A DNA stretch of 64,000 nucleotides, from the NCBI GenBank assembly GCA_944371525.1, contig CALVXP010000002.1, forward strand, positions 1,042-65,041, given 5' to 3'. Shown here piece after piece: positions 4,615 to 59,527 of this stretch; position 1 is the stretch's first letter; every line of letters begins with the position of its first letter. The translations under genes were made by a program, and so were the position numbers. The notes beneath the pieces are model-generated. The model made no database searches, was not told the DNA's origin, and saw only the letters and a program-made list of their open reading frames with translations. This DNA is from an uncultured Bacilli bacterium (GTDB lineage: Bacteria; Bacillota_I; Bacilli_A; RF39; UBA660).

Positions 4615-6544
4615 TAGTATCTTCTTCCTTTGTTACAGTTTCTTTTTCAATTGTTTTAAAGTAGTCATATTTTAATACCAAATCATTTTTCTTTATAATA
4701 TAATTAATATAATTATTTTTTTCTTCTAATTCTTCGTCACTTATTTTACCATTATTAGTAACTACACCACCATCAACATAGACATTTCCATCATACCAAG
4801 AATAATCACTAAAGAATGCTATTCCTTCATAATTAGGATCTAGTGCATCAGTACCAATATAATAACTTGGGTGTTCATATATACCAAATAAATTTAATAC
4901 AGTAGGTAAAATATTTAATTGAGAAGTAACAGAAGTAATACTTTTGCTTTCAATCCCGTTGGACCATATAAAGAATGGTGTATGGTTAATTAAATTGTTA
5001 GATGTTTCTTTATATTTAGCAAGAATTGTTTTATCTGTTAAAGTATACAAATAGTGGTCAGCATAAGCTACAATTACAGTATTATCTAGAAGATTATTAT
5101 CTTCAAGTGCTTGTAATAACATTCCAATCATATCGTCTGTTTCTTTTGCTTGTATTCTTGTACAATCTTCTTCGGATAAAGTTGTTCCTTCTTCTAATGT
5201 ATCTTCTGTAAGCATTTTACATACACCTTTGCTTTGCGAAAATGGAATATGATTAGAGTAAGTAATAATGTAATTTACAAAATTAGTATCAGTAGGGAAC
5301 ATATTTTCATAAAAAGTTTCATTTTTTATAAGTTCTGTGTCTAAATAATAAGTCTCGTCCTTATAATCTCCTAAGTCTTTTAATCCAAAATATTTATCAT
5401 ATCCCCAATTTTTATAATTAATACCTCTTGAATAATATTCACTTGAATTCATATGGAAAGCATTAATTTTGTATCCTAATTCCTTAAATAGTTTTGCCAT
5501 ACCATAATCAAAATTATTTTTATTAAAAGTATATGCATTTTTAGTATAAGTAATCGGAGTTAAATAACCAGTATTAACAGCAAATTCAGAATTAAATGTT
5601 GAACCACCACCATTATAATAAGAATAGTGATTAGTAAAGTTTATTCCTTCATTCATTAATTTATATAAATTAGGCATTCCTTCTTCAGTTACTAACCAGT
5701 CATCAATACCTTCTAATTGTAAGAAAATAAGATTTTTACCTGCAAATATTCCAGTATATTCATTATTATGTTCTTCTTCTTCTAAAAAAACATCTTTCAA
5801 AAATTCTAATTCTGAATCGTCGCTTACTTCTTCTTCTTTTAAAAATGTTATATAGAAGTTTCTTACTGTATATTCATATAAACCAGCTACTGCCATACTT
5901 TTATTATTATCATTAAAGTTAATATATATATTTTTGAAATTTCTCCAAGTATTCCAACTAAGATCAGAGTTAGATGGACCTAATAAAAACGGAATAGTAA
6001 AATGACCAACTAAAAATACTATAAATGTTTTAAGTAAAAATTTATAATTATTAGTATTATAATTTGGAATATGTTTATAACCATTTATTCCTGTATAAAT
6101 AGTGATAATACTAACGACATATATCCATAAATTAGTACTTTTTATTGCATCAATTATATAACTGCTTCCTTCACTTGCCATTTCTAATAAACTAAAATCA
6201 AAGAAATTATTAGTTAAACCATAATAAACATTATTTACATAAAATATAATTAATGATAAAGTTAGAAAAATAATATAAATAATATTTCCATATTTTTTCT
6301 TAAATGATAATACTAAACTAATAAATAAAAATATCCAAAGAATTGTAAATAAATTAGGTACAGGTTGATAAAAACCAAATGAATCTATTGGTTTAGCAAA
6401 TATTCTAGTAGATAAATCTAATATTAAAAAAGGCAAAGCCATATATATAATATAAATATATTTTATTAAAAAATCTCTAATTATTATTGTGTATTTTTTA
6501 GTAAAATTTTTAATTTTATCTATTTTTTTCACACAAATCACCAC
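4601..6544 (-). CDS. LtaS-family (sulfatase-fold) lipoteichoic acid synthase/primase-like protein
   Basis: Five N-terminal TM helices precede an alkaline-phosphatase/sulfatase-like ectodomain (NHYSYYNGGGSTFNSEFAVNTG, YSNHIPF, YADHY). The start is uncertain. The GTG at 6544 has no Shine-Dalgarno (SD) sequence, whereas the GTG at 6532 (VKKIDK) is preceded by GGTGA. Confidence 0.8.
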   Translation of the reverse strand: MVICVKKIDKIKNFTKKYTIIIRDFLIKYIYIIYMALPFLILDLSTRIFAKPIDSFGFYQPVPNLFTILWIFLFISLVLSFKKKYGNIIYIIFLTLSLIIFYVNNVYYGLTNNFFDFSLLEMASEGSSYIIDAIKSTNLWIYVVSIITIYTGINGYKHIPNYNTNNYKFLLKTFIVFLVGHFTIPFLLGPSNSDLSWNTWRNFKNIYINFNDNNKSMAVAGLYEYTVRNFYITFLKEEEVSDDSELEFLKDVFLEEEEHNNEYTGIFAGKNLIFLQLEGIDDWLVTEEGMPNLYKLMNEGINFTNHYSYYNGGGSTFNSEFAVNTGYLTPITYTKNAYTFNKNNFDYGMAKLFKELGYKINAFHMNSSEYYSRGINYKNWGYDKYFGLKDLGDYKDETYYLDTELIKNETFYENMFPTDTNFVNYIITYSNHIPFSQSKGVCKMLTEDTLEEGTTLSEEDCTRIQAKETDDMIGMLLQALEDNNLLDNTVIVAYADHYLYTLTDKTILAKYKETSNNLINHTPFFIWSNGIESKSITSVTSQLNILPTVLNLFGIYEHPSYYIGTDALDPNYEGIAFFSDYSWYDGNVYVDGGVVTNNGKISDEELEEKNNYINYIIKKNDLVLKYDYFKTIEKETVTKEEDTNEET

Positions 6545-9905: not shown

Positions 9906-10011
9906 AAACTACACCTCGAATTAATTATACATTAATTTCCTAAAAAATTCAAAATTACATTAAATAAGGGGTTGACAAAACAAATTAAAATACTGTATTA
10001 TTGTTTTAATA

Positions 10012-10280
10012 ACTTTGATGAAGAGAAGTAGATTTAAACAATTCTTATAGAGAGTTAGGGGTGGTGGGATCCTAATAGATAGTTTATTATGAAAAACACT
10101 TTGGAGTTGCTTATCGAAAATGTTGTGAGTAGAATAAGCCGGCTTGAATACCGTTATATATTCTAGATTTGTTAGAATCGAAAAAAGAGATTATAAAATT
10201 AAACTTTTTATAATAAATTGGGTGGCACCGCGGAAACCAGACTTCGTCCCATAATAGGGATATAAGTCTGGTTTTAATAT
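10012..10280 (+). promoter_or_regulatory. T-box riboswitch leader (probable Asn specifier) controlling asnB
   Basis: The conserved T-box sequence AAATTGGGTGGCACCGCGG lies at 10215-10233. An 11-bp terminator stem follows (AAACCAGACTT 10234-10244 / AAGTCTGGTTT 10264-10274 plus a T-run). Stem I elements are AGAGA and GGTGGTGGGA. The candidate specifier is GAA-AAC-A at 10092-10098, with the AAC (Asn) codon at 10095-10097. Confidence 0.8.
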
Positions 10281-10301: not shown

Positions 10302-11876
10302 ATGTGTAGTTTCTTAGTTTACACAAAATGTGACATTAGTCAAAAAGAATTTAAAGAGGGTTTGAAAAAAATAAAATATAGGGGACCTGATATGACAAAA
10401 ATAATAACTAATGATGGTATGTGGGGATTTAATAGGCTTTCCATTATGGGATTAGATGAAAGTGGTATGCAACCGTTTATAAAAGATGATATGATGGTAG
10501 TATGTAATGGTGAAATATATGGATTTAGAAAAATAAAAGAAGAATTAATTAATAAAGGATATGAATTTAAATCTAACAGTGATTGCGAAATATTGCTTCC
10601 ATTATTAAAAGAACATGGAATGAAAATGTTTAAAAAATTAGATGCTGAATTTGCATGTGTAATTTTTGATGGTAAAGAATTTATTGCAGCAAGAGATCCA
10701 ATAGGAATACGACCTATGTTTTATGGATTTTCTAAAAAAAATCATAATATAATGTTTGCATCAGAAGCAAAGGCTTTAATAGATATGTGTGATGATATTT
10801 ATGCATTTCCTCCAGGACATTATTATTATAAAGAAAAATTTATAAAATATTATGATACTACAAAAGTTGATAAAGTTATTGATGATAGTTTGGATGAAAT
10901 TTGTTTAAATATAAAAAATAAATTGGAAAAAGGAATAATTAAAAGATTAGATTCTGATGCTCCGTTAGGATTTTTATTAAGTGGGGGTCTTGATTCTAGT
11001 TTAGTATGTTCAATTGCTACAAAATATTTAAAAAAGCCAATTAAGACATTTGCAATAGGTATGAATACTGATGCAATTGATTTAAAATATGCCAAAATAG
11101 TTTCTAATTATATAGGAAGTGATCATACAGAAATAATAATAAGCAAAGAAGATGTTATTAATTGTTTAGAAGAAGTTATTTATCATTTAGAAACATGGGA
11201 TATAACTACAATTAGAGCTAGTATTGGTATGTATTTATTGTGTAAGTGGATAAGAAATAATACAAATATAAAAGTTTTATTAACTGGAGAAGTTAGTGAT
11301 GAATTATTTGGATATAAGTATACAGACTTTGCACCAAATAAAGAAGAATTTCAAAAAGAATCAGAAAAGAGAATTAGAGAATTATATATGTATGATGTAT
11401 TACGAGCTGATCGTTGTATATCAGGTTGTTCAATAGAGGCTAGAGTACCGTTTGCGGACTTAGACTTTGTAAAATATGTAATAAGTATAAATCCTAGTAA
11501 GAAGATGAATACTTATGGTATAGGAAAATATTTGTTAAGAAAATCTTTTGAAGGAATTTATTTACCTGATGAAATTTTAATGCGTGAAAAAGCAGCTTTT
11601 TCTGATGCAGTAGGTCATTCAATGGTGGATTATTTAAAAGAATATGCTGAAAGTAAATATACTGAAGATGAATATAGAAAAAGAATCAAAAAATTTAAAA
11701 CTCATAAACCTTTTACAAAGGAATCATTATTGTATAGAGAAATTTTTGATAAATATTATAGTGGGCATGATGACTTAATAGTAGATTATTGGATGCCTAA
11801 TAAAAAATGGAATGGTTGCAATGTTAATGATCCATCTGCAAGGGTATTAAAAAATTATGGTGATAGTGGAAAATAA
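10302..11876 (+). CDS. asnB: Asparagine synthetase (glutamine-hydrolysing), short E. coli AsnB-like type
   Basis: MC- N-terminus (Cys2 nucleophile of Ntn amidotransferases). PP-loop SGGLDSS. The C-terminal synthetase domain follows. 524 aa. Confidence 0.9.
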   Translation: MCSFLVYTKCDISQKEFKEGLKKIKYRGPDMTKIITNDGMWGFNRLSIMGLDESGMQPFIKDDMMVVCNGEIYGFRKIKEELINKGYEFKSNSDCEILLPLLKEHGMKMFKKLDAEFACVIFDGKEFIAARDPIGIRPMFYGFSKKNHNIMFASEAKALIDMCDDIYAFPPGHYYYKEKFIKYYDTTKVDKVIDDSLDEICLNIKNKLEKGIIKRLDSDAPLGFLLSGGLDSSLVCSIATKYLKKPIKTFAIGMNTDAIDLKYAKIVSNYIGSDHTEIIISKEDVINCLEEVIYHLETWDITTIRASIGMYLLCKWIRNNTNIKVLLTGEVSDELFGYKYTDFAPNKEEFQKESEKRIRELYMYDVLRADRCISGCSIEARVPFADLDFVKYVISINPSKKMNTYGIGKYLLRKSFEGIYLPDEILMREKAAFSDAVGHSMVDYLKEYAESKYTEDEYRKRIKKFKTHKPFTKESLLYREIFDKYYSGHDDLIVDYWMPNKKWNGCNVNDPSARVLKNYGDSGK

Positions 11877-20791: not shown

Positions 20792-21466
20792 ATGGATGAA
20801 GCAATGATAAGAGATGAAGTAATTGTGTATGAAAAAAATAAGATTTATAGTGTTATTAAAAGAATTTTTGATATGTTATTAGCACTTATTTTATGTCCAA
20901 TTGTAATATTTATATATATAATAATAAAAGTTTCTTATATCTTTAGTGGTGATTTTCATCCAGTTATGTTTAAACAAAAAAGAACGGGTAAAAATGGTAA
21001 AGTATTTACTCTATATAAATTTAGAACTATGGTATATGGTAATGATGTGTATGATTTAACTAAGAAAGATAAATTTACCAAAGTAGGTTCTTTACTTAGA
21101 AAGACTAGTTTAGATGAATTAGGACAAATAATAAATGTTTTAAAAGGAGAAATGTCATTTATTGGTCCTAGACCATGGATAGTAGAATATTATGAAAATA
21201 TGAATAATAATCAAAGACATAGATGTGATGTTCTTCCCGGAATTACTGGTCTTGCCCAAGTTAAAGGTAGAAATAATATTAATGTTTTTGATAAAATAAA
21301 ATATGATTTAGAATATGTTAGTAATATGTCTTTTAAACAAGATATAAAAATAGTTATATTAACTATAAAAACAGTGATATCTAAAAATGGTGCTTATGCT
21401 GGTAAAAGTAGTATTCAAAATGAAATAGAGTGCTTAAAAGAACAAAATAAGAAGGCTATTAACTAG
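20792..21466 (+). CDS. Undecaprenyl-phosphate sugar phosphotransferase (small bacterial sugar transferase, priming enzyme)
   Basis: KRIFDMLLALILCPI..., FKQKRTGKNGKVFTLYKFRTM, DELGQIINVLKGEMSFIGPRP, PGITGLAQV. Confidence 0.9.
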   Translation: MDEAMIRDEVIVYEKNKIYSVIKRIFDMLLALILCPIVIFIYIIIKVSYIFSGDFHPVMFKQKRTGKNGKVFTLYKFRTMVYGNDVYDLTKKDKFTKVGSLLRKTSLDELGQIINVLKGEMSFIGPRPWIVEYYENMNNNQRHRCDVLPGITGLAQVKGRNNINVFDKIKYDLEYVSNMSFKQDIKIVILTIKTVISKNGAYAGKSSIQNEIECLKEQNKKAIN

Positions 21467-21533
21467 TGTTAATGGTCTTTATTATTATATTAATAAATGA
21501 TATAATGAAATATAGAAGTAGGTGGGGAATATA

Positions 21534-23756
21534 ATGAAAAAAGTTTTATTTACAGCAACTGTTGATTCGCATATTTTAGCTTTTCACATTCCGTATTTAA
21601 AATATTTTAAAGAAAGAGGATATGAAGTTCATGTTGCAACAAACGGAAATGCTAAAATTCCTTATTGTGATAAAAAGATAATTATTCCATTTGAACGTTC
21701 TCCATTTAAATTCAAAAATATAAAAGCTTTAAAAAACATAAAAAAAATTATAAAATTAGAAAACTATAATATAATTCATACACATACACCAGTAGCTTCT
21801 GTTATAACTAGATTAGCAGCTAAAAAAGAAAGAAAAAAAGGAACTAGAATTATATATACCGCACATGGATTTCATTTTTATAAAGGTGCATCAATTAGAA
21901 ATTGGTTATTATTTTATCCTGTCGAGAAATATTTATCTAAATATACAGATACATTAATAACAATAAATGAAGAAGATTATAATTTTGTTAAAAGAAAGTT
22001 TAAAAAATGTAATGATATTAAGTATGTCCCAGGAGTAGGAGTAGATGAACAAAAATTTAATTTTATAATTAATAATAAAGAAAAAATAAAGTTAAGAAAA
22101 GATTTAGGATTAAATGAAAATGATTTTGTAATGATATTTCCTGCTGAATTAAATCAAAATAAAAATCAAATTTTTATAATAAATGTAATGGAAAAATTAG
22201 TAAGGAAATATGAGAACATACATTTATTATTACCTGGTAAAGATTCTTATGGAGGATATTATCAAAAAATAGTTAAAGAAAAAAATCTTCAAAAAAATAT
22301 TCATTTTTTTGGATATAGGGAAGATATTCCTAAACTATTAAAAATATCTGATTTATCAATAGCAACATCTAAAAGAGAAGGATTACCTGTTAATATAATT
22401 GAGGCAATGTGTGTTAAATTGCCAATAATAGCAACTAATTGTAGGGGACATAGGGAATTAATTAAAGATGGTATAAATGGATTTTTAGTAGATATAAATG
22501 ATGAAAAAGAATTAGAAAATAAAATTGTATACTTATATAAAAATAGTGATATTAGAAAAAAAATGGGTGAAAATGGTGCTTTAGAATTTAAAAAATACAG
22601 TTTATTAAAAATATATGATGAAATGTGTAATATATATGACCCAAAGAAGAATATAGCTTTTTTAAGATGTACACCTATTTATAATGATTCTAGAGCATTA
22701 AAAGAAGTACAAACATATAGTAAATTAAATAATAATGTGTTTGTTTTGGGATGGAATAGAAATTGTGAAAGTATAGATATTAATAAATTATCATTACCTA
22801 ATAATTGTAAGATAAGTTTCTATAATAGAAAAGCTTCATATGGAAGTGGATATAAAAATATAATAAATCTTTTAAAGTTTAATATATGGACATATAAAAA
22901 ATTAAAAGAGAATAAAACAAGAATAGATTATATTCATGCTTGTGATTTTGATACAGCATATATTGCTACTAAGTTTGCTAAAAAATATAATAAAAAAGTA
23001 ATCTATGATATATATGATTATTATGTAGATAGTCATAATTTAGGACCTTTAAAAAATATAGTTGAACGATTAGATATAAAAACAATAAATAAAGCTGATT
23101 TTACTATTATTTGTACTGAACAAAGAAAAAAACAAATAAATAAATCGAATCCTAAAAATATTGTTGTTATTCATAATTCTCCTAATTATCAAAAAGATTA
23201 TGAAATAACTAATCAAAAGAAAAATAAAGGAAAAATTAGAATAGGGTATTTTGGTATATTACAAGATGATAGACTTTTAATAGAAGTAACTGAGCTAATT
23301 AAAAATAATAATAAATATGAATTACATGTTGGAGGATTTGGTAAGTATCAAGAGTATTTTGAACTTATGTCAAAAAAATATAATAATATTACTTTTTTTG
23401 GACCATTACCATATAAAAGCGTAATTGAAAAAGAAAAAGAATGTGATGTATTATTTGCTACTTATAATCCTAAAATAACTAATCATATGTTTTCTGCACC
23501 AAATAAAGTATATGAATCAATGGCTTTAGGAAAACCAATTATAGTATGTGAAAATACTGGAATAGATGAATTAGTAAATAAGGAAAAATTAGGTTATGTT
23601 ATAAAATATGATGCTAAAGAATTTATTAATAAATTAGATAAATTAGATAATATAGATATAAATAGAATCCAACAAATATTTAAAAAAAGTTATAGTTGGG
23701 ATGTAATGGAAAATAAATTTAAAGATATGCTAATTAGATTAGGAGATAGAAAATGA
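21534..23756 (+). CDS. Two-domain fusion glycosyltransferase (N-terminal GT4 plus a second GT-B domain)
   Basis: The first half has GT4 features (REGLPVNIIEAMCVKLPIIATNCRGHRELIKDGINGFLV). The second half has a second GT-B C-terminal core (PNKVYESMALGKPIIVCENTGIDELV). The start is taken at ATG 21534, after AGGTGGGG. Confidence 0.8.
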   Translation: MKKVLFTATVDSHILAFHIPYLKYFKERGYEVHVATNGNAKIPYCDKKIIIPFERSPFKFKNIKALKNIKKIIKLENYNIIHTHTPVASVITRLAAKKERKKGTRIIYTAHGFHFYKGASIRNWLLFYPVEKYLSKYTDTLITINEEDYNFVKRKFKKCNDIKYVPGVGVDEQKFNFIINNKEKIKLRKDLGLNENDFVMIFPAELNQNKNQIFIINVMEKLVRKYENIHLLLPGKDSYGGYYQKIVKEKNLQKNIHFFGYREDIPKLLKISDLSIATSKREGLPVNIIEAMCVKLPIIATNCRGHRELIKDGINGFLVDINDEKELENKIVYLYKNSDIRKKMGENGALEFKKYSLLKIYDEMCNIYDPKKNIAFLRCTPIYNDSRALKEVQTYSKLNNNVFVLGWNRNCESIDINKLSLPNNCKISFYNRKASYGSGYKNIINLLKFNIWTYKKLKENKTRIDYIHACDFDTAYIATKFAKKYNKKVIYDIYDYYVDSHNLGPLKNIVERLDIKTINKADFTIICTEQRKKQINKSNPKNIVVIHNSPNYQKDYEITNQKKNKGKIRIGYFGILQDDRLLIEVTELIKNNNKYELHVGGFGKYQEYFELMSKKYNNITFFGPLPYKSVIEKEKECDVLFATYNPKITNHMFSAPNKVYESMALGKPIIVCENTGIDELVNKEKLGYVIKYDAKEFINKLDKLDNIDINRIQQIFKKSYSWDVMENKFKDMLIRLGDRK

Positions 23757-36144: not shown

Positions 36145-37182
36145 TTGCCTACAAAAGAAATATTAATTAGTCCTAGAATACAATTATGCTATGACAAAGT
36201 ATTTAAAAAGTATTTAGAGATAATCCAAATGCTTTGGCAAAGTTAATAAGTGATATAACAGGGATACCTTATCTTGAGACGAAAGATAATATAGTATTTA
36301 GTAGTAATGAGCTTAGATTAAATCATATAAAAGAGAAATCTAAGGTATGTGATTTTATTGTTAATGTAGATAATTATAGTATAAATATAGAGATGAATAT
36401 GTATCCTAGTAAATGGATAAAATATCGTAATTTTGCTTATCTAAATAATTTATATAATGGTATAGTAAATTCAGGATTAAAGTATAATGAATATGGTAAA
36501 AAAGTAGCTATACAAATAAATTTTAATGTAAACTATAAAAGTGAAGAACTACCAATAAGTAAATGTGTAGTATTTGATACAAATAGGTGCAAAATATTTA
36601 TAGATAACTATTATATTTACCAGATAGATATTGTTAAGTGTTTGGATATAGTATATAATGAAAGTAAAATAACAAATGTACTTTCTGGAATAAGATGGGG
36701 AGCATTATTATATGCAGATAATCTAGAAGACATAGAAATAATATTAGGAAATGATTTATTAGAGAAAAAGGAGAAAGAAGAATTTATGAAAACAGTAAAA
36801 GGAATAGTTTATGAAGGAAAGACACCGGATATGGATTGGGATATTGAAAAAGATATTGAAAATCAAATAGCATCAACAAAAGCTGAAATTAAGGAAGACT
36901 ATTGGGAAGAAATAAAAGCAGAATTTGCTGAAGAATATGGTGAAGAAACTTTAAGAGAATACATTGATTTGAATAAAGATAGATAAAATAAATAAAAAAT
37001 ATCTTGATGAAAATAAGGATAAAATAAAAAGAGAGTATTTAGATAAAATTACTTCACAAACTATTGAACAAAACACAATCCTTTTCATAAAAAATATGTT
37101 AAAAGAAAAATTACCTCTAGAATCTATAGCAAAAATTGCTAATAAATCATTAGAAGAAATAAAAAAAATTAGCGAAAGCTAA
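36145..37182 (+). pseudogene. Rpn/PD-(D/E)XK nuclease-family putative transposase (PDDEXK_2-like), split over three frames
   Basis: TTG 36145 after GGAGGTG gives LPTKEILISPRIQLCYDKVFKKYLE, then a stop at 36244. The family continuation DNPNALAKLISDITG...CDFIVNVDNYSINIEMNM runs in another frame (open 36207-36986). The usual C-terminal helix-turn-helix tail (IKNMLKEKLPLESIAKIANKSLEEIKKISES) is in the first frame again (36973-37182). Two frameshifts are implied, one near 36214-36220 and one near 36973-36986 in an A-rich run. Confidence 0.6.
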
Positions 37183-37436
37183 TTTTTTTCATCATCTTCT
37201 ATAAATAGTAAGTATACTTTAATTCCTAATGCAGTAGCTATGGAATTAATAACAGCTAAAGAAAAATTATTACGATAATTTCCTTCAATAGATATTACAG
37301 TAGAATAACTATAAGGAATAAGATCAGCTAGTTGTTCTTGAGTAAGTCCTTTTTCTTTTCTATATTTTTTGATATTTTTACTTACTACTTTATAAATATA
37401 TTCTTCATTTTTTCTGTCAACTCTCATTTGCACCAC
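37179..37436 (-). CDS. XRE-family helix-turn-helix transcriptional regulator
   Basis: KNIKKYRKEKGLTQEQLADLIPYSYSTVISIEGN. 85 aa. Confidence 0.85.
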   Translation of the reverse strand: MVQMRVDRKNEEYIYKVVSKNIKKYRKEKGLTQEQLADLIPYSYSTVISIEGNYRNNFSLAVINSIATALGIKVYLLFIEDDEKN

Positions 37437-38375: not shown

Positions 38376-38450
38376 TTTTTTTTTAATTTATTATTGTTTA
38401 TTTATTTAATTTATTATATAATAGTCATAGATAATAAAGGGTGTGTATAT

Positions 38451-40775
38451 ATGACTATTTTAAATAATATAAGTAAGAAAAATATGATATTGATATCTTT
38501 ATTTGTAATATCTTTAATAACAGTAAGTTTATATCAGACTTTAGCAACAGATATAACAATGAATAAAACAAATGTAGCAAGTGTAGATTTATCTTATACT
38601 TTTGATATAACAGATCAAACAGGAAGAGTAGTAAAAGTTAAAGCGGGTCAGACAAAAGTATTAGATATATTTGTAACAAATACAAATAATGGGACAATAA
38701 AATATGGAATAGCATATACACCATCTTCTGTAAAAACAAATGATGTAACAATAGCAGAGTTATCAACATCAAAAGATAGTGTAAGTGGCTTAATAAATAA
38801 AAATGAAAAGAAACAAATAACTATCATAATAATAAATAATAAAACTAGTGATATATCTTTAACATTAGTTCCTGTAACAGGATATGAACATGGAGGTAAT
38901 TTAATAGTACCTTCAAATCATACACTTATAACAGAAGAATATGAGTTGTTTGATCCTGTTAATGCAGTTGAATATGTTGAATCATTATTACCTAGTAATC
39001 CTGAAACAATGAATAATGACGATCCAGATGGCAATGTAAGATATATGGGAGCAGATCCTAATAATTATGTATCATTCAATGATGAATTATGGAGAATAAT
39101 TGGAGTCTTTGATGTAGCATCAACAAATGGAGGAACAACAGAGAAAAGACTAAAAATAATAAGAGATGAGTCAATAGGAAGTTATTCGTGGGATAATAAA
39201 CCATCAGGAACAGGATCTTCTACATCAAATTATGGAAGTAATGATTGGACTGATAGTACCTTAATGGAAGTGTTAAATAATGGTGCTTATTGGAATAGAA
39301 CAAGCGGTACTTGTCCGAGTGGTAGCAATGGGGCCACAACAAGTTGTAATTTTAGTTCTACTGGTCTTACCGAAGAAGCAAAAAATTTAATTGGTGATGC
39401 TGTATGGAATCTCGGTGGAACTGCTTCATATACAAGTGCATCAACTGGACTTGCTAGTCACTTCTATGGCTATGAAAGAGGAACAACTGTATATAGTGGA
39501 AGACCAACATATTGGATAGGTAAAATAGGACTAATGTATCCATCAGACTATGGATATGCCACAAGTGGAGGAACAACTACAAATAGAGCATCATGTTTAG
39601 CAAAAGAAATGTATAATTGGGTTAGTTCAAGTTATAGTGATTGTAAAAATAATGATTATTTATATAATTCTAGCTCGACCCAATGGACAATGACACCGCG
39701 TTCATCCAGTTCGAACTATGTGTTTTATGTGAACAACAACGCTCGTTTGAATTACAACATTGCCTACTTTGGCTATGCCGTGCTCCCAACAGCGTATCTA
39801 AAATCTTCCGTCTTGATAACAGGGGGAGATGGAACTTCTGAGAATCCATATAAATTGCAAGGACCACCAACCGGTGCAGAATATATAGAATCATTATTAA
39901 CAAGTAATTCAGAAACAATGAATAATGATGATCCAGATGGTAATGTAAGATATATGGGAGCAGCTCCTAATAATTATGTATCATTCAATGATGAATTATG
40001 GAGAATTATAGGAGTGTTTGATGTAGCATCAACAAATGGAGGACCAACAGAGAAAAGACTAAAAATAATAAGAGATGAGTCAATAGGAAGTTATGCATGG
40101 GACAATAAACCGTCAGGAACTGGTTCTTCAAATTCAATCTATGGAGGTAATGATTGGACTGATAGTGTTTTAATGGAAGTGTTAAATAATGGTGCTTATT
40201 GGAATAGAACAAGCGGTACTTGTCCGAGTGGTAGCAATGGGGCCACAACAAGTTGTAATTTTAGTTCTACTGGTCTTACCGAAGAAGCAAAAAATTTAAT
40301 TGGTGATGCTGTATGGAATCTCGGTGGAACTGCTTCATATACAAGTGCATCAACTGGACTTGCTAGTCACTTCTATGGCTATGAAAGAGGAACAACTGTA
40401 TATAGTGGAAGACCAACATATTGGATAGGTAAAATAGGACTAATGTATCCATCAGACTATGGATATGCCACAAGTGGAGGAACAACTACAAATAGAGCAT
40501 CATGTTTGGCAAAAGAAATGTCTAATTGGCATAATTCAAGTTATAGTGATTGTAAAAGTAATGATTATTTATATAATTCTAGCTCGACTCAATGGACAAT
40601 GACACCGAGTTCATCCAATTCGAGCGGTGTGATTTATGTGAGCAGCAGCGCTTATTTGTACCGCGGCAATGCCTACATTGTCTATGCCGTGCTTCCAACA
40701 GCGTATCTAAAATCTTCCGTCTCAATAACTTCTGGTGACGGTAGTCAAGATAATCCTTATGTTTTGAGTACTTAG
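38451..40775 (+). CDS. Secreted or anchored protein: N-terminal beta-sandwich-like region plus two tandem ~303-aa domains, each ending in a hypervariable block
   Basis: ATG 38451 (MTILNNISKKNMILISLFVISLITVSLYQTLA signal/anchor) is preferred over the track start at 38394. Two domain copies begin at ...EYVESLLPSNPETMNNDDPDGNVRYMG and ...EYIESLLTSNSETMNNDDPDGNVRYMG. I recognise no family with confidence. Confidence 0.8.
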   Translation: MTILNNISKKNMILISLFVISLITVSLYQTLATDITMNKTNVASVDLSYTFDITDQTGRVVKVKAGQTKVLDIFVTNTNNGTIKYGIAYTPSSVKTNDVTIAELSTSKDSVSGLINKNEKKQITIIIINNKTSDISLTLVPVTGYEHGGNLIVPSNHTLITEEYELFDPVNAVEYVESLLPSNPETMNNDDPDGNVRYMGADPNNYVSFNDELWRIIGVFDVASTNGGTTEKRLKIIRDESIGSYSWDNKPSGTGSSTSNYGSNDWTDSTLMEVLNNGAYWNRTSGTCPSGSNGATTSCNFSSTGLTEEAKNLIGDAVWNLGGTASYTSASTGLASHFYGYERGTTVYSGRPTYWIGKIGLMYPSDYGYATSGGTTTNRASCLAKEMYNWVSSSYSDCKNNDYLYNSSSTQWTMTPRSSSSNYVFYVNNNARLNYNIAYFGYAVLPTAYLKSSVLITGGDGTSENPYKLQGPPTGAEYIESLLTSNSETMNNDDPDGNVRYMGAAPNNYVSFNDELWRIIGVFDVASTNGGPTEKRLKIIRDESIGSYAWDNKPSGTGSSNSIYGGNDWTDSVLMEVLNNGAYWNRTSGTCPSGSNGATTSCNFSSTGLTEEAKNLIGDAVWNLGGTASYTSASTGLASHFYGYERGTTVYSGRPTYWIGKIGLMYPSDYGYATSGGTTTNRASCLAKEMSNWHNSSYSDCKSNDYLYNSSSTQWTMTPSSSNSSGVIYVSSSAYLYRGNAYIVYAVLPTAYLKSSVSITSGDGSQDNPYVLST
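38961..40772 (+). repeat. In-frame tandem duplication, 2 x 909 bp
   Basis: Constant offset of 909 nt, for example GAATAT at 38970 versus 39879. 39261-39598 is identical to 40170-40507 by direct comparison. Confidence 0.95.
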
Positions 40776-40777
40776 AA

Positions 40778-40811
40778 GCCGAGGTGGCGTTGTCCACCCG
40801 GCGTATTTTTT
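40778..40811 (+). terminator. GC-rich intrinsic terminator immediately after the repeat-protein stop
   Basis: GCCG(A)GGTGG-cgttgt-CCACCCGGC followed by gTATTTTTT. Confidence 0.8.
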
Positions 40812-59450: not shown

Positions 59451-59527
59451 TGGCGCGCCCATAGGGATTCGAACCCCAAGCCTTTTGGTCCGTAGCCAAA
59501 CGCTCTATCCAATTGAGCTATGGGCGC
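59451..59527 (-). tRNA. tRNA-Arg (anticodon ACG), CCA-encoded
   Basis: The reverse complement GCGCCCATAGCTCAATTGGATAGAGCGTTTGGCTACGGACCAAAAGGCTTGGGGTTCGAATCCCTATGGGCGCGCCA folds as a cloverleaf. Acceptor GCGCCCA/TGGGCGC, D arm GCTC/GAGC, anticodon stem TTTGG/CCAAA with loop CTACGGA, and T arm with GTTCGAATC. Confidence 0.93.

Follow-up and report, generated by a model that had tools for sequence, protein, structure and literature searches.

Which process can keep two copies of a duplicated protein domain identical over hundreds of nucleotides and let them diverge, almost exclusively at amino acid-changing positions, in a short block near their ends? The question is raised by a 64,000-nt stretch of DNA (hereafter the window; contig CALVXP010000002.1 of assembly GCA_944371525.1, positions 1,042 to 65,041 of the forward strand) from an uncultured Bacilli bacterium (RF39; UBA660), in which one gene (the target gene, 38451-40775, plus strand) encodes a 774-aa secreted protein whose signal/anchor segment and N-terminal domain precede two tandem DUF6273-like domains, each carrying such a block. 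One known diversification system is that of diversity-generating retroelements (DGRs), in which a reverse transcriptase (RT) copies a template repeat, with mutation at adenines, into a variable region (VR). On the evidence assembled here we regard it as highly probable that both blocks are DGR-written VRs, belonging to a target that is either remote from its retroelement or recently orphaned.

The two repeats and their variable regions

The two tandem domains (each of ~300 residues, preceded by an N-terminal domain of ~140 residues) are encoded by direct repeats offset by 909 nt. Domain copy 1 (38961-39863, plus strand, residues 171-471) is of an enlarged C-type-lectin-like DUF6273 type as judged from its hmmsearch envelope, AlphaFold2 and Foldseek, and domain copy 2 (39870-40772, plus strand, residues 474-774), delimited by the 909-nt direct repeat and its hmmsearch envelope, ends at the stop codon. 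Compared base by base, the first 290 nt of the 5' part of the repeats (38970-39260) carry 28 differences, 17 of them at codon position 3, with synonymous and nonsynonymous codon changes numbering 10 each. They are succeeded by a 338-nt block (39261-39598, plus strand) that lies directly 5' of the variable regions and is 100% identical to 40170-40507; the first difference 3' of it is synonymous (at 39599), and the identity most likely marks a recent gene-conversion tract between the repeats.

Beyond this tract the pattern of substitution changes. Between 39612-39773 and 40521-40682 we counted 26 nucleotide differences in 20 codons, of which 19 are nonsynonymous and one is synonymous (ACC/ACT at 39680), and which are distributed over codon positions 1, 2 and 3 as 9, 15 and 2 (24 of 26 at positions 1-2). 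In the dense part of the block (39699-39773) all 15 of the altered codons are nonsynonymous, and an A is present in one copy at 15 of the 20 differing sites. Against the N-terminal part of the repeat (38970-39260), the block is distinct both in its ratio of synonymous to nonsynonymous changes (Fisher p = 0.003) and in the share of changes at position 3 versus positions 1-2 (p = 5e-5). A preliminary description of this DNA had reported the identical tract and the dense block with the same figures, and both were recovered; its wider block also stood, and its totals for that block (25 nt in 19 codons) are replaced by the ones given above. An A is found at 19 of the 26 differing sites, where ~58% would be expected (our unscripted estimate from the base composition of the block), so that the A bias drawn from two copies alone is weak.

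The block is bounded on its 3' side by an invariant flank (39774-39812, plus strand; repeated at 40683-40721), which is identical in all seven VRs compared and which, as had been described, matches between the repeats over its 39 nt except for a CTC/CTT wobble (at 39785). This flank probably holds the 3' end of the template homology (an initiation of mutagenic homology (IMH)-like site) together with conserved coding sequence; a search for a hairpin downstream of the VRs found none. As 26 differences are thus enclosed by near-identical flanks (338 nt and 39 nt), the rewriting would post-date a very recent conversion of the repeats.

We delimited variable region 1 (VR1) at 39612-39795 (plus strand; variable sites 39613-39777, dense core 39699-39777; encoding ..TP-RSSSSNYVFYVNNNARLNYNIAYFG-YAVLP) from the codon table, the alignments of five and of seven VRs and the family-wide entropy peak at domain residues 247-272, its 3' limit being set by analogy with the end of template/variable homology in a related locus (L003, see below). 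Variable region 2 (VR2; 40521-40704, plus strand), in the same register, encodes ..TP-SSSNSSGVIYVSSSAYLYRGNAYIV-YAVLP. The sites 39613-39649 lie 5' of the start of template homology in relatives and nevertheless obey the A rule (TAT/TCT/TTT, GTT/CAT/AAT, AGT/AAT), and the matching template is therefore probably longer, at ~190 nt. From the VR alignments we reconstruct this template, approximately, as ACACCG AAT TCA TCC AAT TCG AAC AAT GTG WTT TAT GTG AAC AAC AAC GCT AAT TTG AAC WAC AAC AAT GCC TAC AAT GRC TAT GCC GTG CNN CCA ACA GCG TAT.

The same block stands out at the level of the protein family. Homologues of the target protein number more than 6,800, almost all of them from gut metagenomes and uncultured gut Bacilli. 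A motif pattern that captured the VR region in ~70 of the 120 closest ones revealed near-exclusive variation in this block and high conservation of the rest (P0017 and P0018 are identical except in the VR block). Column entropy over 106 domain sequences forms a single peak at residues 247-272, where variable columns are interleaved with conserved scaffold residues; in the hypervariable columns, the fifteen amino acids to which an AAY codon can mutate make up 96.5% of the residues, with K, E, Q, M and W supplying the other 68 of 1,960 (3.5%). Within GTDB representative genomes we identified 393 relatives, in metagenome-assembled genomes (MAGs) that come from the gut of chicken, human and rabbit and are named 'uncultured Bacilli bacterium', Candidatus Ventrenecus and Clostridium sp. 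CAG:451, with many paralogues per related genome (in one MAG, as many as 12 or more loci).

A nonsynonymous excess such as the one seen between the repeats is also expected from positive selection, and one could envisage that a ligand-binding surface under strong diversifying selection has simply accumulated ordinary point mutations, without a dedicated mutator. We find this very hard to credit, given that the same columns vary across thousands of homologues, that the templates of relatives (described below) carry AAY at exactly those codons, and that synonymous change is near zero in the block and plentiful in the older part of the repeat.

The predicted fold gives the block a place on the protein. 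The AlphaFold2 model of the domain (pLDDT 96.3, pTM 0.94) was obtained with an alignment of 35 diverse family domains as input (an earlier input of 16 near-identical sequences gave pLDDT 38 and was unusable), and its best PDB match in Foldseek was 9qa6, the DUF6273 N-terminal domain of the Thomasclavelia ramosa IgA peptidase, with E = 1.9e-8 and a TM-score of 0.52 across 310 columns; Legionella Lcl (8q4e) and classical C-type lectin domains came next, as weak matches. A structure search against viral models returned DUF6273 and receptor-binding proteins as top matches, the phage DUF6273 proteins with probability 1.0. By sequence, the window domain stays below the gathering threshold of Pfam DUF6273 (PF19789; 13.7 bits vs 23.5, E = 0.058), while 9 of 16 relatives match it at E <= 1 (best 7e-7) and some homologues carry a precomputed PF19789 hit; the link to DUF6273 therefore rests on structure and on relatives. 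According to the model, the domain is an enlarged C-type-lectin-like DUF6273 domain of ~300 residues. The preliminary description had proposed a C-type-lectin-type fold for this domain as a point for structure prediction, and the model provides one, in which the variable residues are located on strands and turns (247-273 of 301 residues).

DGR cassettes beside relatives of the target

The adenine specificity that two copies could not establish by themselves is visible in the neighbourhood of related genes. An RT or RT fragment occurs within 10 kb in 10 of the 79 loci kept from the GTDB relatives, and in ten related loci a family member adjoins a template repeat, with Avd and RT also alongside in those checked. 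The homologues beside complete DGR cassettes are 45-80% identical to the window protein. In L003, where the homologue is 80% identical over the aligned 58% of the query, the target is followed by a helix-turn-helix (HTH) gene, two MutS_I-like small open reading frames (ORFs; MSL), a 115-nt template, a third MSL, bAvd and RVT_1, and 18 of the 19 mismatches between the template and the VR of the target fall at template A. Eight more template/variable pairs gave the same picture (mismatches at template A: 15/15, 15/15, 15/16, 16/18, 18/19, 20/21, 18/20 and 19/22), as did a ninth with 20 of 22 substitutions at template A and 3 gap columns. The VR of these relatives falls on the same residues as that of the window protein, and their templates carry AAY at the variable codons. 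Every template translated from the target family encodes a variant of PNSSNSNNVFNVNNTGYVNNNNANN, and the more distant template of L117 encodes RNSSSSTNFNAWNVNSNGNVNNNNLNNTNAVRP.

Moreover, the cassettes of relatives reach beyond the adjacent gene. The template of L082 fits the VR of L095 (18/19 at A), from which it is separated by 57 kb of one contig, and that of L047 fits L072, which lies on a different contig of its MAG (18/22 at A). In L117 (3161-11952), with an RT that is 54% identical, a single template (4899-5019) is accompanied by an adjacent 533-aa target (16 of 18 VR mismatches at A) and, 5 kb downstream, by a two-domain 726-aa protein, to whose C-terminal VR it fits well (23/29 at A) and to whose internal VR it fits poorly (17/34). 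The suggestion that two VRs within one ORF would be unusual is contradicted: proteins with two domains are frequent in the target family, L117 offers a case beside a cassette, and several VRs per ORF have been described in 31 DGRs (PMC6642488) and in further instances (PMC11661182).

It is because relatives adjoin templates and cassettes with mismatches almost only at A that we favour a DGR origin of the two blocks; this support does not come from the window itself. The proposal that they represent DGR-type VRs of a secreted binding domain, situated at its C-terminal end, is thereby upheld, by the relatives' cassettes together with the family-wide block and the predicted fold.

As regards cassette organisation, the order HTH (minus strand), MSL, MSL, template, MSL, Avd, RT was seen in L003 (11969-14668) and also in L008, L011, L015 and L101-L105, with two or three MutS_I-like ORFs. 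Cassettes whose RTs share 78-95% identity with that of L003 have in common a conserved stretch of ~75 nt just after the template (..TATATGGTTAAGGCTATATAATTAGAGTTTTAAAGGACAAAGTCTATCC..), which probably belongs to a priming or spacer structure of the template RNA.

Possible signs of decay were found as well. The template of L008 (1131-1244) is interrupted by an in-frame stop codon, has FLVFTSG, a VR-like stretch, in place of FNVNNTG, and may have been overwritten or be decaying.

Presence or loss of the retroelement

The absence of an RT, an Avd and a third copy from the 64 kb, as claimed in the preliminary description, was borne out: no third copy of the block was found in the window by blastn (word size 7), no RT, Avd or MSL gene by tblastn with the proteins of a relative, and no RT motif by a scan for [ILVM]GxxxSQ. 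The VRs are C-terminal and have neither RT nor template within the window, and hence would belong either to remote targets or to relics. Furthermore, they are not alone: the target protein is one of several paralogous targets in its genome. P0054, a paralogue encoded beside mutS, occurs in the same two metagenomes as the window protein, and the five VRs of the window (two), of the sister strain locus L007 (two) and of P0054 share a single invariant scaffold and vary at the same columns; a sixth copy of the scaffold, in L110, departs from it at 3 positions only. P0241, the orthologue of P0054, carries a different VR. Third-codon-position identity to P0054 is 0.85-0.91 inside the VR versus 0.74-0.76 upstream, which fits homogenisation by a shared template.

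The chromosomal positions of paralogous targets are conserved: one lies upstream of lon, another immediately downstream of a full-length mutS (L100:10001-11545, 21396-21545; L004, L005). In one related genome, at least four targets of the same VR type lie among housekeeping genes (similar read coverage, sample ERZ24773368).

Taken together, these observations can be arranged into the following scenario. An old domain duplication would have been followed by gene conversion that made the 3' two-thirds of the copies identical, after which each VR would have been rewritten independently, leaving differences only at template-adenine sites. For this, an AAY-rich template would be transcribed from a DGR at another chromosomal site, equipped, as shown in relatives, with MutS-like accessory genes, Avd and RT; the RT would copy the template with random bases opposite adenines, and the resulting cDNA would replace the homologous VR.

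Several results weigh against a DGR that is at work in this genome, or against a DGR as author of the blocks altogether. Besides the empty searches of the window, the exact scaffold pattern TTCGNNCNNTGTGNTTTNTGTGNNCANCNNCGCTNNTTTG gave no match in GTDB representative genomes, JGI metagenomes or IMG/VR, and none of the templates fetched from relatives' loci fits the window scaffold, all of them being of another template version. The VRs are unchanged in two ENA metagenome assemblies in which we found the window locus: L001 is 100% identical over 13,974 nt, VRs included, and L002 differs by 9 single-nucleotide polymorphisms (SNPs) in 6.7 kb, 0 of them in the VRs, so that no turnover is visible on that time scale. 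The strain is represented in ENA assemblies ERZ28614662 and ERZ24773277. A few differences fall outside the A pattern (39680 C/T, 39752 T/C, 39785 C/T, and some in the 3' part of VR1 of L007). Finally, in two related MAGs a target is followed only by a C-terminal RT fragment of ~112 residues (L032:10935-11690, after an HTH gene; L037:11047-12697, after an unannotated opposite-strand 391-aa ORF); these look like decayed DGRs that left orphan VRs behind, and orphaned VRs therefore do occur in the group.

Such findings lend themselves to the view that the blocks are a relic, written by a DGR that has since been lost or inactivated and now subject only to ordinary mutation and recombination among paralogues. 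In its favour are the 64-kb window without a cassette, the identity of the VRs in three assemblies, the truncated RT remnants beside the targets of L032 and L037, the L008 template with its stop codon and FLVFTSG stretch, and the few non-A differences and scaffold mismatches in L100 and in VR1 of L007. We nonetheless hold a relic to be possible and somewhat doubtful, since the 26 differences sit between 338 substitution-free nucleotides and 39 nt with one synonymous change, the scaffold is intact in five copies, and the third positions of paralogues are better conserved inside the VR than upstream.

The search for a matching cassette outside the window returned only relatives of it. RT look-ups with P0125, P0128, P0127 and P0163 yielded DGR cassettes from other samples or MAGs only, with a different template version; the same-VR-type targets P0054, P0052, P0015, P0056 and P0093 have housekeeping neighbours and no RT within 10 kb. 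The element just downstream of the template (TATGGTTAAGRCTATATAATTAGAG), used as probe, gave two JGI matches, both with the other template version, and none in IMG/VR; a protein search with the predicted template translation returned only four C-terminal target fragments. The window scaffold (..AYxGYAV[L/R]PTAYLKSSV) is thus a version distinct from that of every recovered template, and the species of the window appears to be absent from the GTDB representatives and the JGI and IMG/VR collections searched. Provided that the VRs were written by a DGR, we put the chance that the element is still present in the genome at slightly better than even.

Recombination between domains has also left its traces, and must be considered as an explanation in its own right. 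In L002 an A to G change relative to the window is present at the same site of both repeats (39509 and 40418), which, together with the 338-nt identity, points to concerted evolution by gene conversion, or to repeat collapse in the assembly. In the sister strain locus L007 the flanks differ from the window by ~0.3% and the two-domain part (39000-40800) by ~10%, synonymous sites included; its VRs differ from those of the window, within a domain region that is itself ~10% divergent. This suggests that, in addition to whatever a DGR may have done, recombination with domains of paralogues replaced the two-domain part of L007.

Segmental gene conversion among paralogous domains, shuffling existing VRs in the manner of antigenic-variation cassettes and with no current retroelement, would account for the divergence of L007 and for the inter-repeat conversion seen in the 338-nt block and the paired SNP, and it would find ample material in related genomes with their many paralogues (up to a dozen or more loci in a single MAG). 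Taken alone, it yields no position 1-2-restricted variation on a fixed scaffold and leaves the AAY-reachable residue set unexplained; moreover, the ultimate source of variation in relatives is a template with adenine-specific mismatches, and we thus judge it an unlikely explanation of the blocks.

A further option, which we consider decidedly improbable, is that the scaffold is diversified with no template resident in the genome, either by a DGR acting in trans from a phage or mobile element or by cassette-type conversion that recycles DGR-written VRs. Were it to apply, gut Bacilli would hold a large repertoire of variable lectin-like surface receptors (a dozen or more loci per genome) that is uncoupled from the mutator.

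Genomic setting and relation to known systems

The prototype of DGR variable proteins is Mtd of Bordetella phage BPP-1, a phage tail-fibre protein with an adjacent cassette. The window protein resembles it in having the VR at the C-terminal end of a C-type-lectin-fold domain (as predicted here), AAY codons and an invariant 3' flank, but we detected no sequence or significant structural similarity between the two, and no hairpin is found downstream of the window VRs.

Closer counterparts are offered by DUF6273, described as a DGR target of C-type-lectin-like type whose C-terminus holds the VR (PMC10743442, PMC11792537). It is known from gut phages and prophages, in the tentaclins and the Target2 proteins of phages nd4 and nd12 (PMC10743442) and in the targets of Faecalibacterium prophages (PMC11792537). 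These phage proteins share with ours the domain type and the VR beta-hairpins on a C-type-lectin-like core, with the Faecalibacterium VR at the C-terminal end of DUF6273. They differ in that the window gene is chromosomal, its domain (~300 residues) is nearly twice the length of the Pfam model and tandemly duplicated, and no cassette lies within 64 kb. The enlargement itself has a precedent in the 9qa6 domain of T. ramosa, whose C-type-lectin-like core is enlarged to twice the usual size (PMC12237041) and which is annotated as DUF6273 (PMC12402451). This domain is our best solved structural match and stems from another gut member of the Bacilli, whereas its sequence identity to the window domain is 16%, and it is dispensable for protease activity and not known as hypervariable.

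Among cellular DGRs, those of Treponema denticola (TvpA, with seven remote targets) and Legionella (with MSL) and architecture D of Wu et al. 2018 are on record (PMC5758913), and the MutS-like ORFs of our relatives match the MSL accessory class of that study. Common to both are MSL, Avd and RT, the reach to targets that are tens of kb distant or lie on different contigs, and a chromosomal rather than phage-associated location; the cassettes of our relatives differ in possessing two or three MSL genes that flank the template and in serving another target family, and a cassette in the genome of the window would be presumed from them.

DGRs, C-type-lectin/DUF6273 targets, MSL-type cassettes, remote targets (PMC5758913) and multiple VRs per ORF are thus already known, and no new mechanism is put forward. 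What the locus adds is a chromosomal, multi-copy family of DGR targets from poorly known uncultured gut Bacilli of chicken, human and rabbit, in which annotation of a single contig can miss the DGR because RT and template may lie elsewhere. As DGR rewriting, inter-domain gene conversion and DGR decay are seen together in this family, it may serve as a reasonable model for the gain, retention and orphaning of VRs.

The start codon of the target gene is most likely the ATG at 38451 rather than the TTG at 38394 that opens the mechanical ORF (38394-40775): the database protein P0001, which is 100% identical to the 774-aa product, begins at this ATG. A putative hydrophobic N-terminal signal or anchor peptide (MTILNNISKKNMILISLFVISLITVSLYQTLA; 38451-38546, plus strand) was read from the sequence only, and homologues conserve this N-terminus. 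The NCBIfam scan of the protein assigned no family and a PDB sequence search gave nothing meaningful. The locus is chromosomal: the target gene sits between yunB (sporulation) and rlmN, the latter followed by genes for a PP2C phosphatase (prpC) and a PASTA kinase (prkC) and by rsgA, and a DNA similarity search of a phage collection with the target gene produced no match. G+C content across the window is 19-31% per 2-kb windows, mostly 20-26%.

Further upstream, 1.4 kb before yunB, a 250-aa ORF (36234-36986) has a sub-threshold match to PDDEXK_2 (PD-(D/E)XK transposase family; 23.8 bits vs a cut-off of 27.4), and an 85-aa ORF (37179-37436, minus strand) is the counterpart of a gene that was called as HTH_3 in L001, where the locus is identical. 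The sole Rfam/tRNA hits in the window are a T-box leader (10006-10254) upstream of ORF 10302-11876 and a tRNA-Arg (ACG) on the minus strand (59451-59527).

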